Below are positions 1 through 11,611 of a stretch of 12,106 nucleotides of DNA, piece by piece. The stretch is from a virus (taxonomy: Duplodnaviria; Heunggongvirae; Uroviricota; Caudoviricetes): the IMG/VR virus record IMGVR_UViG_2744054964_000001, one strand, 5' to 3'. The position numbers and the translations under genes are program-made. The notes under the pieces were generated by a model, which did no database searches, was not told the origin of the DNA, and saw only the letters and a list, made by a program, of their open reading frames with translations. The first letter of the stretch is position 1. Each line of letters begins with the position of its first letter.

Positions 1-1254
1 ATGCTGGAACAAATGGGCATTGCCGCGAAGCAAGCCTCGTATAAATTAGCGCAACTCTCCAGCCGCGAAAAAAATCGCGTGCTGGAAAAAATCGCCGATG
101 AACTGGAAGCACAAAGCGAAATCATCCTCAACGCTAACGCCCAGGATGTTGCTGACGCGCGAGCCAATGGCCTTAGCGAAGCGATGCTTGACCGTCTGGC
201 ACTGACGCCCGCACGGCTGAAAGGCATTGCCGACGATGTACGTCAGGTGTGCAACCTCGCCGATCCGGTGGGGCAGGTAATCGATGGCGGCGTACTGGAC
301 AGCGGCCTGCGTCTTGAGCGTCGTCGCGTACCGCTGGGGGTTATTGGCGTGATTTATGAAGCGCGCCCGAACGTGACGGTTGATGTCGCTTCGCTGTGCC
401 TGAAAACCGGTAATGCGGTGATCCTGCGCGGTGGCAAAGAAACGTGTCGCACTAACGCTGCAACGGTGGCGGTGATTCAGGACGCCCTGAAATCCTGCGG
501 CTTACCGGCGGGTGCCGTGCAGGCGATTGATAATCCTGACCGTGCGCTGGTCAGTGAAATGCTGCGTATGGATAAATACATCGACATGCTGATCCCGCGT
601 GGTGGCGCTGGTTTGCATAAACTGTGCCGTGAACAGTCGACAATCCCGGTGATCACAGGTGGTATAGGCGTATGCCATATTTACGTTGATGAAAGTGTAG
701 AGATCGCTGAAGCATTAAAAGTGATCGTCAACGCGAAAACTCAGCGTCCGAGCACATGTAATACGGTTGAAACGTTGCTGGTGAATAAAAACATCGCCGA
801 TAGCTTCCTGCCCGCATTAAGCAAACAAATGGCGGAAAGCGGCGTGACATTACACGCAGATGCAGCTGCACTGGCGCAGTTGCAGGCAGGCCCTGCGAAG
901 GTGGTTGCTGTTAAAGCCGAAGAGTATGACGATGAGTTTCTGTCATTAGATTTGAACGTCAAAATCGTCAGCGATCTTGACGATGCCATCGCCCATATTC
1001 GTGAACACGGCACACAACACTCCGATGCGATCCTGACCCGCGATATGCGCAACGCCCAGCGTTTTGTTAACGAAGTGGATTCGTCCGCTGTTTACGTTAA
1101 CGCCTCTACGCGTTTTACCGACGGCGGCCAGTTTGGTCTGGGTGCGGAAGTGGCGGTAAGCACACAAAAACTCCACGCGCGTGGCCCAATGGGGCTGGAA
1201 GCACTGACCACTTACAAGTGGATCGGCATTGGTGATTACACCATTCGTGCGTAA
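1..1254 (+). CDS. proA: gamma-glutamyl phosphate reductase (glutamate-5-semialdehyde dehydrogenase)
   Basis: Full-length 417-aa ORF ending at TAA 1252-1254. I recognise the sequence as enterobacterial ProA, with an aldehyde-dehydrogenase-type catalytic Cys motif [12 protein letters not shown]. Its position directly upstream of thrW matches the E. coli proBA-thrW locus. Confidence 0.97.
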
Positions 1255-1368: not shown

Positions 1369-1444
1369 GCCGATATAGCTCAGTTGGTAGAGCAGCGCAT
1401 TCGTAATGCGAAGGTCGTAGGTTCGACTCCTATTATCGGCACCA
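1369..1444 (+). tRNA. thrW: tRNA-Thr (anticodon CGU)
   Basis: 76-nt cloverleaf folded by hand. Acceptor stem GCCGATA/TATCGGC, D stem GCTC/GAGC, anticodon loop TTCGTAA (CGT), T arm GTAGG-TTCGACT-CCTAT, encoded CCA end. It matches my memory of E. coli thrW. Confidence 0.97.
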
Positions 1445-3679: not shown

Positions 3680-4110
3680 TGGAAAAGAAAAACCGCCCAT
3701 TACAGGCGGCTAACTCAGATATTCGCACGTCTGATATTACGCCGACCACCAGCCCGGTACAAGTACCTAGGCGTACCCCAAAGAAACACCGCGCCCGCGT
3801 CTATATGCTGCGTACTGGTATAGAGGGATGGACAGAAAACGACATTCTTCGCTACTGCCGTCTGTCTTCTGGTCGTAACTATGCAACAGAGTTAGAACGC
3901 CAGCTTGGAATCACTCTGGAGCGTATCGACGAAAAGAATCCTGATGGTATCGGAACACACCTTCGCTACCGTTTCTCCTGCCGTGGTGATGTTCTGAAAG
4001 TGATCACTCATGTTAACCATCTTGCGAACATAAATGATCACAACGGACTTTCTCAGCAGGAAATTGCCGACATTCTGAAACTCTACCCGGACGCGTTTAA
4101 CGCCGCCTAA
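3679..4110 (+). CDS. hypothetical protein (basic, probably disordered N-terminus)
   Basis: 143-aa ORF translationally coupled to alpA (TGATG overlap). I recognise no domain. Confidence 0.7.
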   Translation: MEKKNRPLQAANSDIRTSDITPTTSPVQVPRRTPKKHRARVYMLRTGIEGWTENDILRYCRLSSGRNYATELERQLGITLERIDEKNPDGIGTHLRYRFSCRGDVLKVITHVNHLANINDHNGLSQQEIADILKLYPDAFNAA

Positions 4111-5187: not shown

Positions 5188-5419
5188 TCTGCAACCTTAC
5201 AAAACCTGATATTGATACCGCAGCGCCTGGAGTTCCGTTACCAGTACGCGAGGCGCTTACCCTCAACAAAAAGATGGTGAGCCGTGCACAGGGAAAACTC
5301 TTAAAGGGTTACGGTTTTATCTGGTATGACCACCTAGCAGAGAAAAGCTGTTATAGTCCAAGCGTTGCTGCAAAATCAGCAACCGGGCGTGAGAACCCGA
5401 ACACACTCAGGGCGACACA

Positions 5420-5441
5420 GACGCCGAAAGCGTCTTTTTTT
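5420..5441 (+). terminator. candidate intrinsic terminator inside the leader of the icd-like gene
   Basis: GACGC-CGAAA-GCGTC followed by seven T residues (5435-5441). The stem is short (5-6 bp), so confidence is moderate. Confidence 0.5.
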
Positions 5442-5466
5442 GTGTCCATTCACTACGCACATCAAA

Positions 5467-5603
5467 TCAGCGGACTTACCCGTACTGTATCAATGGTGGC
5501 GTTAGTGGGGCTACGTTCGCGTAGGCCGGTTTCCTTTGTGTCCGGTATTCTCACCCCCGCTGACGTCACCGCCAATTCAGAGCGTGAGAACTCAGGCGGT
5601 GAC
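5467..5603 (+). ncRNA. structured RNA region resembling the P4 CI / P1 C4 immunity-RNA locus ('ash' region); ends not determined
   Basis: A closing stem TCAGCGG (5467-5473) / CCGCTGA (5557-5563) encloses two hairpins: a UUCG-tetraloop hairpin CTACG-TTCG-CGTAG (5511-5524) and CCGG-loop-CCGG (5526-5545). A 9-bp stem follows, GTCACCGCC (5565-5573) / GGCGGTGAC (5595-5603). The conceptual translation (MVALVGLRSRRPVSFVSGILTP) resembles 'Ash family protein' annotations, which overlie the P4 cI RNA gene. Confidence 0.45.
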
Positions 5604-5630
5604 TCCTTAAACACAAAGGAGGCTGCCATA

Positions 5631-5822
5631 ATGGCTACTACCCCTACCCAAAAACCGCAATTTATCTGGATTATCGCAGCAGTTCGCCGCGATATGCCGA
5701 CAATTACCGCCAAAATTCACCATATCGCCGCAGAGACTGAGCAGGAAGCCCGCCGCATTCTGGCGCGGGATCACGTTTGCTTTTTTGCCGGACGTATTCG
5801 CACAGGGGGCGCACATGCTTAA
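5631..5822 (+). CDS. icd: host cell division inhibitor Icd-like protein
   Basis: 63 aa starting at the ATG 7 nt after AAGGAGG (5617-5623). The pattern KPQFIWIIAAVRR...TEQEARRIL...HVCFFAGRI resembles Icd-like proteins of P4-like elements. The frame is open upstream to 5070, but that extension is judged non-coding. Confidence 0.75.
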   Translation: MATTPTQKPQFIWIIAAVRRDMPTITAKIHHIAAETEQEARRILARDHVCFFAGRIRTGGAHA

Positions 5823-5994
5823 TTACTTCCGTGTTGCAGGATGCGCCACCGCCAGGAGCGGCGAATTAGTCGAGTTCGTTTATATCGTTGACGCCCGCAG
5901 CGCGATCAGCGCCAAAGCTGAGGCGCTAAATCAGGCCAGAAATGAACGCCTTTCCCACATCCAGATTACCCGCGTTCGTGAGGTGGCGGCATGA
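5815..5994 (+). CDS. hypothetical protein
   Basis: 59 aa starting at an ATG that overlaps the icd-like stop (ATGCTTAA), with an AGGGGG SD. The ORF-track start at 5785 lies inside icd and lacks an SD. Confidence 0.6.
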   Translation: MLNYFRVAGCATARSGELVEFVYIVDARSAISAKAEALNQARNERLSHIQITRVREVAA

Positions 5995-7197: not shown

Positions 7198-7539
7198 ATG
7201 ATTACTAAAAATTTCCGACTTAATGCGCTGGCGAATAAGTATGCGTCGGCACTGTATAACCACATTACGGCTATCAATGGTGGCAATTACTTCATGGTTG
7301 ACGCGGCAGGCCAGCAAATCCGTGTGGAGATCGTCAATGGAGTAAAAGGCGTTCGCAGCCTGATCGATAGCTACACACTGGCAGCCATGAAAGTGTCCTA
7401 CCCGCAGTGGGAAACCGTGGGGGTCGAGCTTCTTGAGCGTTGCGTCACTAAGGACGGATTGACTGACGTCGGGCGCGAGATATGGCAAAGCATGGTTAAA
7501 GACATGGGCGCGACAGTGGCAGGAGGCAATCATGCGTAA
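7198..7539 (+). CDS. hypothetical protein
   Basis: 113-aa ORF with a GAGGGGG SD. Its stop overlaps the primase start (ATGCGTAA). Confidence 0.75.
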   Translation: MITKNFRLNALANKYASALYNHITAINGGNYFMVDAAGQQIRVEIVNGVKGVRSLIDSYTLAAMKVSYPQWETVGVELLERCVTKDGLTDVGREIWQSMVKDMGATVAGGNHA

Positions 7540-9973
7540 TATCGACCTTATCCGCGAAGTGACCAGTGCCGCCGCCGGGCGCTGGCCTTATGTGCTGGCT
7601 GGATTGTCTATCGACGTGCCTGATTCATCGCGCCGCCATTCTCCATGCCCTGCATGTGGTGGAAAAGACCGTTTCAGATTCGACGACAACGGGCGCGGTA
7701 GCTTTATCTGCAACCAGTGTGGCGCTGGTGACGGGCTGGATTTAATCAAGCGGGTTAACAACTGCGACACTACGGAGGCGGCACAGCTTGCCGCTGACGT
7801 GCTGGGTATTGATTACCGGGCAGCGCAAACCGACCCGGTGGCAGCGAGCCATAGAAGAGAGCAACTGGAAGCTGACCGCCAGCAGCGTGAGCAGGAGCGC
7901 CAGAAACAGGCAGCAGAGGATGCAGAGCAGCGAAGGGCTACGTTTGCCCGTCTGTATGCCGGAATGCGCCAGAGTGCCACACAGGGCGAATCTGATTACC
8001 TGCAATCAAAAGGGCTGACCGGGTTTAAATATCCGGTAATGCCGGATGGTTCGTTATTGCTGGAGCTGGTGGACGAATCCGGCGCAGTGGCAGCAGCGCA
8101 AACCATTACACCGCAGGGAGAGAAGCGACTCCTGACAGGTTCAGCAAAGCGCGGGGCATATCACGCCGTAAACGCGCCAGAATCGCCGCAGAGCGTTTTA
8201 ATTGCCGAGGGGCTGGCGACGGCCCTTTCAGTTCACCTGATGCGCCCGGACGCGCTGGCAGTGGCAGCAATTGACGCGGGCAACCTGCTACCCGTTGCCG
8301 AAGTGATGCGCCGGAAACACCCGCAGTCGCAAATTATCATTGCCGCAGATAACGACCACCAGCAGGACGAACAGGCGAACACGGGCAAAGATGCCGCAGA
8401 GAAAGCCGCCTTATCCGTGGCTGGCTGGGTGGCGCTGCCGCCGACAGACTATAAAGCCGACTGGGACGACTACCGCCAGCAAAACGGGCTGGAAGTCGCT
8501 ACGGCTGCGTTTAACGATTCGATGTACCAGATTCAGGGGGAAGCCGTGAAACCACAACTACAGGCCATTGCGGGCGGTAAATCCCGCCGTAAAGCCGAAG
8601 TCGGAGATATTGCACAAATGGCAGCCAGCCAGAAAGCGCGGTTGCTTTCATCTCGATGGGATATGTTGGCGGTTAACCCTGATAGTGGCACTGTTTACTG
8701 TTACGAATCTGGCGTATGGGAGAAGCTACCAGACAGTGAATTAGAAAGGGTTATGGTGGCAATTTTCGACGAGCACGAAGCCCACTACACCGAAAAGGGG
8801 ATTAAATCGGTTGTCGCAACCATGAAGCTGCAAATACCGGTAATTGGTGAGCGGAGCGGGGATCTGATTGGTTTTGATAACGGCGTTTATGACCTCGCCA
8901 CGCAGACGTTTTCCGCCCATTCGCCGGGTAACTGGCTGATGAACCACAATGGGATCACCTACACCCCGCCAGCGCCGGGGGAAAATATTACCACCAGCGC
9001 CCCCAATTTTACCCGTTGGCTGAATCATGCAACGGCTGGCGACCATCATAAGGCCGAGCGTATCAAAGCAGCCTTGTTTATGGTGCTGGCGAAGCGTCAC
9101 GACTGGCAGCTATTCATTGAGATAACTGGCGAGGGCGGCAGTGGGAAATCCGTATTCAGCAGCATAGCAACCACGCTGGCAGGTGAACACAACACCGCCA
9201 GCGGTAGCATGATGACGCTGGACACCGCACGGGGACGAGCGCAGTTCGTAGGAAAAAGCCTGATTATTATGCCTGACCAGACCCGCTATGTTGGAGAGGG
9301 TGCGGGGATTAAGGCCATTACGGGCGGCGATCCGGTAGAGATTGATGGGAAATATGAAAAGCAGTTCACAACCGTGCTAAATGCCGTTGTTATGGCAACC
9401 AATAACGAGCCGATGACATTCACGGAGCGAAACGGGGGCATTGCCCGCCGCCGCGTGATATTCCCGTTTAATAACCCGGTATCAGACGCAGACAAAGACC
9501 CGGATTTAACCGCAAAAATCAGGCGAGAAATCCCGGTGATTATCCGCCACCTGCTAACCACCTTTGCCGACCAGAACAAAGCAAAGGCACTATTACTAGA
9601 GCAGCGCGATTCGCAGGAGGCGCTAGAGGTTAAACGCGGCACAGATCCGGTTGTCGATATGTGTGCGGCGCTTTTTTTCATGAACGAACCCAAAGGCATG
9701 ATGATGGGCGGAGGTACATGGGCAGGCCAGCCAGAGCCGAGGACATATCTTTATCATCTTTATCTGGCGTTTATGGAGTATCACGGCCTGGGTAAACCGC
9801 TTTCCGTCAATAAGTTTTCACGCGCCATAAAATCAGCAGCAAAAGAGTACCGAGCCAGCTACCTGACGAGAAGCATTAACGGCAGAGCGCAAACCAACGT
9901 TGGCTATAACGAGAAGGCTGAGGAGTTCATGCCACGCGCTTACGGCGTGGAGAGCGGGCAGAGTGATGATTGA
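7532..9973 (+). CDS. P4 alpha-type bifunctional DNA primase / SF3 helicase
   Basis: 813-aa ORF. It has an N-terminal Cys4 zinc ribbon CPACGGKDRFRF...CNQCG starting at codon 39 (nt 7646). Toprim-like motifs are LIAEGLATA and IIIAADND. The Walker A motif is GEGGSGKS (nt 9128-9151) and LIIMPD is Walker-B-like. Overall architecture matches P4 gp-alpha. Confidence 0.95.
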   Translation: MRNIDLIREVTSAAAGRWPYVLAGLSIDVPDSSRRHSPCPACGGKDRFRFDDNGRGSFICNQCGAGDGLDLIKRVNNCDTTEAAQLAADVLGIDYRAAQTDPVAASHRREQLEADRQQREQERQKQAAEDAEQRRATFARLYAGMRQSATQGESDYLQSKGLTGFKYPVMPDGSLLLELVDESGAVAAAQTITPQGEKRLLTGSAKRGAYHAVNAPESPQSVLIAEGLATALSVHLMRPDALAVAAIDAGNLLPVAEVMRRKHPQSQIIIAADNDHQQDEQANTGKDAAEKAALSVAGWVALPPTDYKADWDDYRQQNGLEVATAAFNDSMYQIQGEAVKPQLQAIAGGKSRRKAEVGDIAQMAASQKARLLSSRWDMLAVNPDSGTVYCYESGVWEKLPDSELERVMVAIFDEHEAHYTEKGIKSVVATMKLQIPVIGERSGDLIGFDNGVYDLATQTFSAHSPGNWLMNHNGITYTPPAPGENITTSAPNFTRWLNHATAGDHHKAERIKAALFMVLAKRHDWQLFIEITGEGGSGKSVFSSIATTLAGEHNTASGSMMTLDTARGRAQFVGKSLIIMPDQTRYVGEGAGIKAITGGDPVEIDGKYEKQFTTVLNAVVMATNNEPMTFTERNGGIARRRVIFPFNNPVSDADKDPDLTAKIRREIPVIIRHLLTTFADQNKAKALLLEQRDSQEALEVKRGTDPVVDMCAALFFMNEPKGMMMGGGTWAGQPEPRTYLYHLYLAFMEYHGLGKPLSVNKFSRAIKSAAKEYRASYLTRSINGRAQTNVGYNEKAEEFMPRAYGVESGQSDD

Positions 9974-10574: not shown

Positions 10575-10614
10575 TGCGACACCATAAATATAGTTTTTAG
10601 AGCCCATAAAAAAC

Positions 10615-10630
10615 TTGTCAAAACTTGACA
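10615..10630. promoter_or_regulatory. 16-bp palindromic motif TTGTCAAAACTTGACA (copy 2 of 2)
   Basis: Matches 5172-5187 at 15/16. It lies between the 93-aa ORF stop and the terminator. Confidence 0.45.
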
Positions 10631-10639
10631 CACAGAACG

Positions 10640-10672
10640 ATGCCACCAGCTACTGAGCGGTGGCATTTTTTT
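10640..10672 (+). terminator. rho-independent terminator ending the alpA-to-ori operon
   Basis: ATGCCACC (10640-10647) / GGTGGCAT (10659-10666) form an 8-bp stem with an 11-nt loop. A run of T residues follows through 10672. Confidence 0.8.
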
Positions 10673-10673
10673 G

Positions 10674-10740
10674 TGCTATTTGTTTCATATTTTGCAATTA
10701 CGGTGATAAATATTGCTATTTGTGAAACTATAATAACTGT
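10674..10740 (+). promoter_or_regulatory. candidate promoter/operator of the cargo cassette
   Basis: A perfect TATAAT lies at 10729-10734, 33 nt upstream of ATG 10767. The 10-bp direct repeat TGCTATTTGT occurs at 10674-10683 and 10714-10723, 40 bp apart. The -35 element is poor. Confidence 0.4.
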
Positions 10741-10766
10741 TGTTTTATACAGTTCTAAGGGGCGTT

Positions 10767-10940
10767 ATGGCTATTTCAGCAAAGCCGGTATTGATAAGTG
10801 AGAAGCAAATGGAAGCGATAAAGAAAATTCAGGAGGAGCAGCGTAAAAAATCAGAGGTAGGAGTTGCGCCAACGATCCACGAAATTGCTCGGGGATTAAT
10901 GGATAAGGCGCTGGCCTCACTGGCAAGCGAGGGCGCGTAA
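10767..10940 (+). CDS. small ribbon-helix-helix-like protein (putative regulator/antitoxin)
   Basis: 57 aa from ATG 10767 (SD AAGGGG). I prefer this to the TTG at 10740 given in the ORF track. The layout is a beta-strand-like KPVLISE, then helix EKQMEAIKKIQEEQRKK, a loop, then helix TIHEIARGLMDKAL. The stop overlaps the next start (TAATG). The fold call is inference from pattern only. Confidence 0.6.
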   Translation: MAISAKPVLISEKQMEAIKKIQEEQRKKSEVGVAPTIHEIARGLMDKALASLASEGA

Positions 10941-11611
10941 TGGGCGCCATTCACCAGATATATGAGCATGAAATGTTCTATAACTGGATAGGTGATGGTA
11001 AACGATGTGTAGCATTCCACGAAGCGGGACATGCAGTAGCTGCATGGCTTATTCGCTTAGATATACAGGTTATCGCCGTTATGGATGAATACGGTTACGT
11101 TGCTGGCGAACATGTACATGAGGCCAAGTGTTTGGGTGTTGTTAAACACAGCATAATTCACAGCCACGATCTAGGGCGTTTGCGGGATAGTAAATCTGGT
11201 GTAGTTGGGCAGAATGGTAAAGTTATCCCTTTCATACGTTACTATGCGGATGGTATAAAGCGCGATGCAAAAAAGGCCGCTTTTGTATCCCTCGCCGGAC
11301 CAGTAAGCGAAGCCCTTTACGAAAACAACGATATTTTCAACAAAAAGTATTCGCTACCTCATCGCTATGACATGGCTAACGTAAATGACATGCTCGATTT
11401 AATCTGCGCTACAGATAAGCGAATTAACAGGGAGTTAATGCTTTCTAAACTCGTTGAAAAGACCAAAGCCCTCATGTCTCAATACTGGTATGAAGTAGAA
11501 AAAATAGCGCATTTGCTTGAACGGGATAGCATTGTGAATGGTCGAAATGTTAGCTCGTTAATTGGCATCAACGTCATAGACCGGGCAACGCCATTTTTGC
11601 TGGTGGAATAA
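10940..11611 (+). CDS. stand-alone FtsH/M41-like zinc metalloprotease domain protein (HEAGH)
   Basis: 223-aa ORF with a GAGGG SD. VAFHEAGHAVAAWL (HEAGH at nt 11018-11032) parallels the FtsH protease-domain motif VAYHEAGHAI. Later segments align by eye to FtsH: LAGPVSEALY to GGRLAEEIIY, and the C-terminal helices. There is no AAA+ module and no TM segment. Confidence 0.8.
   Translation: MGAIHQIYEHEMFYNWIGDGKRCVAFHEAGHAVAAWLIRLDIQVIAVMDEYGYVAGEHVHEAKCLGVVKHSIIHSHDLGRLRDSKSGVVGQNGKVIPFIRYYADGIKRDAKKAAFVSLAGPVSEALYENNDIFNKKYSLPHRYDMANVNDMLDLICATDKRINRELMLSKLVEKTKALMSQYWYEVEKIAHLLERDSIVNGRNVSSLIGINVIDRATPFLLVE

Follow-up and report, generated by a model that had tools for sequence, protein, structure and literature searches.

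A stand-alone FtsH-type protease gene as exchangeable cargo behind the conserved leader of an EcCIMP1-like phage satellite

Phage satellites carry anti-phage systems at variable cargo sites close to their ends, and the stretch studied here, positions 10,674–11,611 of the IMG/VR virus record IMGVR_UViG_2744054964_000001 (Caudoviricetes; 12,106 nt, analysed at full length and called the window below), raises the question of whether it encodes a system of this kind. The stretch encodes a protein of 57 amino acids (aa) and, overlapping its stop codon, a 223-aa protein with a zinc-metalloprotease motif. A first, sequence-only reading had described it as an autonomous cassette, in which a ribbon–helix–helix (RHH)-like protein is coupled to a protease resembling the M41 domain of FtsH, and had proposed it as a candidate defence or toxin–antitoxin system. 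The explanation that we put first, tentatively and as somewhat short of probable, is that the region is not a self-contained two-gene system and represents a swapped-in, single-gene M41 cargo on the conserved leader of a phage-inducible chromosomal island (PICI), acting in phage interference. The parts of this explanation differ in standing: the identity and modular architecture of the region are claims we make with high confidence, while a role of the protease in phage interference is a proposal from sequence and context that we regard as distinctly more doubtful.

The 223-aa protein carries the motif VAFHEAGHAV, with H27, E28 and H31, and a third zinc ligand, D144. Scans of both proteins of the region against Pfam, NCBIfam, PHROGs and PADLOC returned nothing meaningful except an M41 match on the HEAGH helix of the larger protein, restricted to 20 residues around HEAGH and below the gathering score of PF01434 (21.3 vs 29.9 bits); the distant stand-alone relatives P0029, P0038 and P0125 do exceed this threshold. 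A profile of 15 homologues, searched against the Protein Data Bank (PDB), matched FtsH structures in two collinear segments (E = 4e-5). With the AlphaFold2 (AF2) model (predicted local distance difference test, pLDDT, 74; predicted template modelling score, pTM, 0.76), the best 50 Foldseek matches in the PDB were all FtsH, AFG3L2, YME1 or FtsHi, with TM-scores of 0.45–0.58. Alignment to the FtsH protease domain by hhalign (96.3% probability, E = 1.8e-9) extended over residues 19–208, C-terminal helices included, and placed D144 on the Asp of FtsH GASNDI, i.e. the third zinc ligand. All four residues, H27, E28, H31 and D144, are invariant across 15 close and 31 distant stand-alone homologues.

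The protein begins only 19 residues before the protease domain, and domain scans found no AAA+ module in it. Since the Kyte–Doolittle value of its 19-residue windows never exceeds 1.41, no membrane helix is predicted. Its start lies 6 nt downstream of a GAGGG Shine–Dalgarno sequence; a shorter start, called by the Prokaryotic Genome Annotation Pipeline (PGAP) in some genomes, was rejected in favour of the longer one, given that Met is missing at position 12 in homologues such as P0010. Ratios of non-synonymous to synonymous substitution (dN/dS) of 0.18–0.27 against four homologues indicate a real gene under purifying selection. We identify the 223-aa protein as an FtsH/M41 protease domain that stands alone, predicted to be soluble and equipped with a complete active site, and the earlier description of a HEAGH protein related to M41, lacking both ATPase and membrane anchor, is borne out by profile, structural and hydropathy analysis alike.

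To see how the two genes are distributed, we counted them over 5426 complete E. coli genomes. The leader with its small open reading frame (ORF) is present in 520 genomes and the protease gene in 53, in 47 of which the small gene lies upstream of it. Behind the small ORF there are gp14/gp7/gp20/gp16-like genes in 258 genomes and gp20/gp16-like genes in another 214; these 472 genomes account for essentially all copies of the small ORF unlinked to the protease, making the small gene about ten times commoner without the protease than with it. Ejection-type genes behind the small ORF were confirmed at seven of seven inspected loci (L009, L010, L011 and L026–L029). In L009–L011 these operons start at about position 4069 and comprise P22-type homologues of the DUF2824/gp14-like, gp7-like, gp20-like and gp16-like types; about 470 complete E. 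coli genomes contain satellites bearing virion- and ejection-protein homologues of their own behind the same 57-aa leader gene. The protease, for its part, also occurs without the small gene, behind SSB or other genes, Dickeya and metagenomic satellites included (L002, L003, L016–L019, L032, L035 and L037–L040). Thus the terminator, leader and small ORF belong to a satellite backbone found in some 520 E. coli genomes, and neither the autonomy of the two-gene unit nor the conservation of the pair as a neighbourhood withstands the comparison.

These distributions bear directly on whether the region might be a type II toxin–antitoxin or abortive-infection pair, in which the 57-aa protein would be the antitoxin and the protease the toxin. 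A small upstream gene, a stop/start overlap and a location on a mobile element are what such a pair would look like. The protease, however, is stably maintained with no small gene before it in three E. coli genomes at least, as well as in several other lineages, the small gene stands mostly ahead of structural genes, and neither has a PADLOC match. With the two genes not obligately linked (520 vs 53 genomes), we rejected the toxin–antitoxin proposal and give it very little likelihood. The finding of proteases without the small gene, and of small ORFs that mostly head ejection genes, likewise argues against an obligate pair of regulator and protease.

Where the exchanged part begins can be read from an alignment of leaders from satellites with three different primase types. 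They are near-identical over the terminator, a dyad, the TATAAT hexamer, the Shine–Dalgarno sequence and codons 1–49 of the small ORF, and diverge abruptly after ...GATAAGGCGCTGGC. The small ORF of the E2348/69-type island shows 65% protein identity and many synonymous changes, its codons 1–48 being heavily diverged; codons 49–58, at the same time, are nucleotide-identical to those of the window. In a third setting, behind a gene for single-stranded DNA-binding protein (SSB), the same 34 nt stand before the protease gene and the rest of the small ORF is absent. The abrupt divergence, the identical tail and the 34 nt retained in the SSB context together identify the mobile module as the tail of the leader ORF, with its Shine–Dalgarno sequence, plus the protease gene, and the alignments place the swap junction at codon 49/50 of the small ORF. 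We also considered that the ASLASEGA tail is kept by selection as a recognition site for the protease, and rejected this on the ground that the identity is at the nucleotide level; the tail is nucleotide-identical because it is part of the recombined module. The leader ORF is a docking and expression platform for exchanged cargo.

The platform itself has a distinctive layout (Table 1). The terminator that precedes it, already recognised as strong in the sequence-only reading, folds at −26.2 kcal/mol (z = −6.8 vs shuffles), is also reported by a terminator scan, and is nearly invariant across satellites that differ in replication genes and cargo. Directly upstream of its hairpin lies a tandem decamer, AAAACTTGTC then AAAACTTGAC, which includes TTGACA and is kept with point changes in other satellites. 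Downstream, a 17-nt inverted repeat, kept in five of five aligned satellites, is a candidate regulator-binding site. Of the promoter that the cassette had been thought to own, the TATAAT is present; no acceptable −35 was found ahead of it, and a consensus promoter scan reports no promoter there. In the absence of a recognisable −35, the promoter is probably activator-dependent. The impression of AT-richness was confirmed by computation: the GC content is 42.9% in the studied region, 34.9% in the leader and 43.3% in the protease gene, compared with 50.5% in the island part of the window and 55.4% in the primase gene. The region is the most AT-rich coding stretch, the spacer between int and alpA being comparable (42.5% GC).

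The 57-aa protein is less easily placed. Eighteen residues are invariant in the alignment of its homologues, and its AF2 monomer (pLDDT 78) shows an extended segment at residues 1–11 followed by helices at 12–28 and 37–55, a predicted topology compatible with RHH without being specific to it. None of 17 homologues had a Pfam match at E ≤ 10, a PDB profile search and Foldseek on the AF2 model gave no match, tblastn against the phage collection gave none, and the PADLOC scan returned a chance-level Cas11a/Csa5 match only (E = 0.016). The RHH half of the earlier assignment therefore stays putative. As the first ORF after a dyad-bearing promoter without a −35, ahead of interchangeable cargo, the small gene suggests, by analogy, an Arc-like autoregulatory leader.

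If the small protein does bind DNA, the region could resemble the ImmR/ImmA pairs of integrative elements: the 57-aa protein would be a repressor acting on the inverted repeat, and the M41 protein a signal-activated anti-repressor or a protease that cleaves another repressor, for example that of the helper. The overlap of stop and start, the position immediately after a promoter-like region that contains the 17-nt inverted repeat, and the place of the small gene upstream of the protease, seen in 47 of the 53 E. coli genomes as well as in IMG/VR lineages whose proteases are 83%, 67% and 46% identical, all agree with this; the distant relative L021 has the order small ORF, M41, integrase, reminiscent of the immR–immA–int order of ICEBs1. 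We nevertheless consider such a pair improbable, given the small gene's abundance without the protease (472 genomes) and the protease's occurrence without the small gene. The common C-terminal tail, moreover, is a recombination junction, nucleotide-identical beside a diverged remainder, and not a product of selection. A DNA-binding domain was not detected in the small protein by Pfam, PDB profile or Foldseek, and the peptidase belongs to M41, not to the M78/COG2856 family of ImmA.

Returning to the protease as exchanged cargo, its settings in satellites are varied. Among the 53 E. coli genomes, 26 have the arrangement of the window, 21 have the order p183–p62–small ORF–protease on a different satellite backbone, three have SSB–protease, and three have shortened protease copies. 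The order p183–p62–small ORF–protease recurs in IMG/VR lineages at 83% and 67% protease identity, and a version with a Neck1-like gene inserted before the protease at 46%. A p183–(p62-like)–protease order without the small gene is seen at 46–49% identity, SSB–protease followed by a secreted 116-aa protein at 28%, and SSB and protease followed by a 350-aa lipoprotein at 22%, the last also in Dickeya. The protease thus recurs in the post-replication region of PICI-like satellites, frequently but not necessarily behind the small ORF, in agreement with its earlier designation as cargo in a variable satellite position.

Several observations from these loci stand apart from the window. Genes for the secreted protein of about 115 aa lie behind diverged M41 genes in L003 (6603–6953), L019 (3807–4145), and L038 and L039 (6603–6956), and those for the lipoprotein of about 350 aa in L013 (4247–5299), L018 (6795–7853) and L040 (6638–7744); neither gene occurs in the window. 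In enteropathogenic E. coli (EPEC) E2348/69 the C-terminus of the protease is replaced, giving 243 aa (L012, 3996–4727), and the gene faces one for a 407-aa protein with an XRE-type helix–turn–helix (HTH) and the motif HEIGH, COG2856/ImmA-like in appearance (L012, 4775–5998). A protease-profile search of genome contigs was dominated by genuine FtsH genes, L003 being the only useful locus among the matches listed. This record, attributed to Chryseobacterium sp. 18061, carries an enterobacterial-type satellite in which a primase with an N-terminus nearly identical to that of the window primase is followed by SSB and the M41-like gene; this contig is probably a contaminant or wrongly assigned.

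The company the protease keeps in some satellites would also fit a role in exploiting the helper's virion, in which the peptidase processes or destroys ejection, scaffold or connector proteins of the helper so that the particles then serve the satellite. Elsewhere P22-type ejection-protein genes occupy the slot; in L033, L034 and L036 a Neck1/tail-completion homologue (phrog_222, E = 1e-47) stands between leader gene and M41 gene, at 5295–5888; and in L016, L019 and L031 the next genes after the M41 gene are of the DUF5681 type. The satellite of the window, however, has no other virion gene, distant members of the family adjoin integrases and not structural genes, and we know of no zinc metalloprotease in tailed-phage morphogenesis, which also counts against this possibility. 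We judge it unlikely.

The swapped-in protease belongs to a much wider group. With clustering at 50% identity, a profile search retrieved 2258 representative clusters, and among the best 150 almost all have lengths of 150–250 aa. A second search returned 2343 clusters at 90% identity, mostly metagenomic and most with a PF01434 match, which their sources name 'hypothetical' or 'ATP-dependent Zn protease'. Members are also found on IMG/VR contigs, the best structural match in BFVD is a 214-aa 'Peptidase M41 domain-containing protein' of an uncultured phage, and RefSeq already labels some copies 'peptidase M41 family protein'. Among sampled distant genes, two lie directly upstream of a tyrosine integrase (L021 and L023), two beside a DISARM-like cluster (L024 and L025) and one in a plain chromosomal setting (L022). 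In L021 (5001–6482) the M41 gene begins inside the last codons of a 106-aa ORF before it, with an overlap of 4 nt; in L023 (379–2033) the M41 gene lies within 380 bp of the contig start, immediately upstream of the integrase gene. Ten distant relatives of the protease had no meaningful match in PADLOC-DB. A literature search on M41 or FtsH-like proteins with satellites, PICIs or anti-phage activity found nothing relevant, its sole FtsH-like mention being the unrelated IetA, and functional work on stand-alone M41 proteins was not found either. These short M41-only proteins constitute a large, unstudied family of more than 2000 clusters, often located on integrative elements.

One further possibility follows from the likeness to FtsH itself. 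FtsH controls the stability of lambda CII, and CIII inhibits FtsH; a free M41 domain might co-assemble with, compete with or replace host FtsH (HflB), shift the stability of CII/CIII-type regulators, and in this way alter the lysis–lysogeny decision of lambdoid or P22-like helpers. The homology extends over essentially the whole FtsH protease domain, its C-terminal helices included, and the known helper of a related island is a P22-like temperate phage (PMC11773190). An interaction with FtsH would, however, be an argument by analogy, the strictly conserved catalytic residues speak for catalysis over mere interference with assembly, and the wider family occurs in many phyla and in contexts unrelated to lambdoid phages. 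We therefore think this explanation quite unlikely, somewhat more so than virion exploitation or an ImmR/ImmA-like pair.

The swapped-in cargo module has recombined onto an EcCIMP1-type leader, where it stands in place of P22-type DNA-ejection-protein genes. Any expression would come from the conserved leader of the satellite, and the TAATG overlap couples translation of the protease to that of the leader ORF, with a ribosome-binding site in the last leader codons, which travel with the protease. As the protein has neither an unfoldase nor a membrane anchor, we propose that the free domain works as an ATP-independent endopeptidase on one or a few exposed or disordered targets. A phage-related target appears the most likely, considering that the slot is otherwise used for helper-virion proteins and that the family resides on integrative elements: a protein of the helper or of a competing phage, or a host factor that the phage needs, would be cut during helper infection. 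Such cleavage would bias the infection to the benefit of the satellite, which amounts to phage interference; a defence role is possible.

Several points weigh against this proposal. FtsH protease domains are generally thought to depend on their own ATPase for the feeding of substrates, so a free domain might be weakly active or need a partner. The protease has no family at E ≤ 1 in PADLOC-DB 2.0.0, the sole defence library searched, and tblastn against 50,697 phage genomes and 72,556 plasmids found no homologue of it. Hence there is no guilt-by-association with characterised systems, in keeping with the earlier reading, which placed the pair in no named defence family. In three diverged lineages (83%, 67% and 46% protease identity) the small gene again immediately precedes the protease, and some functional link with the leader protein is possible on this account. 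Finally, we infer the enzymatic activity of the protease, the timing of its expression, its target and its phenotype.

The satellite that carries this cargo could be identified from its surroundings. The window is the E. coli proA–thrW junction with an island integrated (Table 1; gene identities from ORFs and Pfam matches). In the syntenic, near-identical strain PC6 (L043), the attachment-site (att) core is repeated at 2122–2131 and 14544–14553, i.e. at a spacing of 12,422 bp, from which the island is about 12.4 kb long and reaches about 1.7 kb past the window. It has a tRNA att site with an integrase, AlpA, a primase/replication module and no structural or lysis genes, in the size range of 10–20 kb, as in EcCIMP1-like PICIs. 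We conclude that it is an EcCIMP1-like Gram-negative PICI at thrW, the induction of which would, by analogy, depend on a helper. EcCIMP1 is a 20 kb E. coli PICI at proA–thrW–yagU (Pick et al. 2025, PMC11773190), induced and transduced by the temperate P22-like phage Kapi1 (PMC11773190). Both islands have the same attachment site, att core, integrase, AlpA, antirepressor, primase and PerC (PMC11773190). They differ in size, and EcCIMP1 is drawn with 'DNA transfer' genes at the position where the present island of about 12.4 kb has its M41 gene; a peptidase goes unmentioned in the EcCIMP1 paper (PMC11773190).

Two observations concern other parts of the island type. At 5351–5576 of the window, in a region that bears an Icd-like annotation elsewhere, Rfam matches to C4 antisense RNA (76.9 bits), isrK and an a1/b1 target element indicate that the PICI has a c4–icd immunity module of the P1/P7/P4 type beside its AntA/B antirepressor gene. 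In strain PT62, with the same island type, a Panacea-domain gene and an adjoining gene for a 144-aa protein lie downstream of PerC (L001, 14149–15041); both are absent from PC6 and may be toxin–antitoxin cargo.

Table 1 Features of the window around the exchanged protease gene and of the island that carries it.
Feature	Position	Strand	Remarks
proA	1–1254		
tRNA-Thr(CGU)	1369–1444		att core TCCTATTATC inside, at 1428–1437
Tyrosine integrase, AlpA-type regulator, AntA/B antirepressor, C4-RNA/Icd-like module			in this order after the tRNA
P4-family primase	7532–9973		
93-aa ORF			follows the primase
Tandem decamer	10610–10629		directly upstream of the terminator hairpin
Intrinsic terminator	10631–10672	+	hairpin and U7; ends the primase/93-aa operon
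Studied region	10674–11611		between the 93-aa ORF and PerC
17-nt inverted repeat	10682–10698 / 10712–10728	.	GTTTCATATTTTGCAAT / ATTGCTATTTGTGAAAC; covers the −35/spacer region and abuts TATAAT
TATAAT −10 hexamer	10729–10734	+	read from the sequence
57-aa leader ORF	10767–10940	+	ATG start; conserved backbone gene of EcCIMP1-type satellites; stop overlaps the protease start (TAATG)
Leader-ORF tail	10914–10940	+	last eight codons and stop (ASLASEGA*); holds the protease Shine–Dalgarno sequence; part of the protease module
Shine–Dalgarno sequence of the protease	10929–10933		GAGGG
223-aa M41 (FtsH-type) zinc-peptidase domain gene	10940–11611	+	HEAGH at 11018–11032; D144 at 11369–11371
PerC-family gene			after the studied region

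These results matter in several respects. FtsH-family proteases are textbook ATP-dependent machines, and the existence of a large M41-only family, its active site intact and purifying selection acting on it, suggests an ability of the domain to work alone or with a borrowed partner. By filling a PICI slot that is normally used for helper-virion proteins, the M41 gene becomes a concrete candidate, cheap to follow up, for a new kind of phage manipulation by satellites. Terminator, leader and 57-aa ORF form a conserved platform for expression and recombination; it occurs in about 10% of complete E. coli genomes, has a fixed exchange junction and helps to interpret other satellite cargo as well. 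A bolder generalisation, which we offer as speculation with a low chance of being right, is that free FtsH protease domains are widespread, unrecognised single-gene effectors on mobile elements. The present one would then act without an ATPase, either by cutting a protein of the helper or of a competing phage, in a new, protease-based form of satellite interference or defence, or by mimicking FtsH and so rewiring the HflB–CII lysis–lysogeny switch of the helper.

Compared with known systems, the 223-aa protein is closest to FtsH/M41 (PF01434), with which it has in common the fold, the HEXXH and downstream Asp zinc ligands and the C-terminal helical bundle. Unlike FtsH, a housekeeping protein with an AAA+ ATPase, transmembrane anchors and a periplasmic domain, it has none of these additional parts, has about 45 additional residues inserted behind the active-site helix and is encoded on a phage satellite. 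It resembles ImmA/IrrE (COG2856, M78) in being a small HExxH zinc peptidase encoded on an integrative element just after a small ORF, and the M41 gene of distant relatives directly adjoins an integrase gene, as noted above; the peptidase family is a different one, the upstream 57-aa protein has no detectable HTH or RHH, and the pair is not obligate. Lit of e14 and other lone HExxH abortive-infection proteases are likewise single-gene zinc metalloproteases of defective or parasitic elements, with infection as a possible trigger in the present case; the 223-aa protein has no homology to Lit or to any PADLOC model, and its M41 fold differs from that of Lit. In the arc–ant operon of P22 a small RHH autoregulator comes first and an effector after it. 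The leader region recalls this layout in its dyad promoter, its opening ORF of about 55 aa, predicted to form an extended segment and two helices, and the effector downstream, although the 57-aa protein resembles neither Arc nor Mnt in sequence or profile searches.

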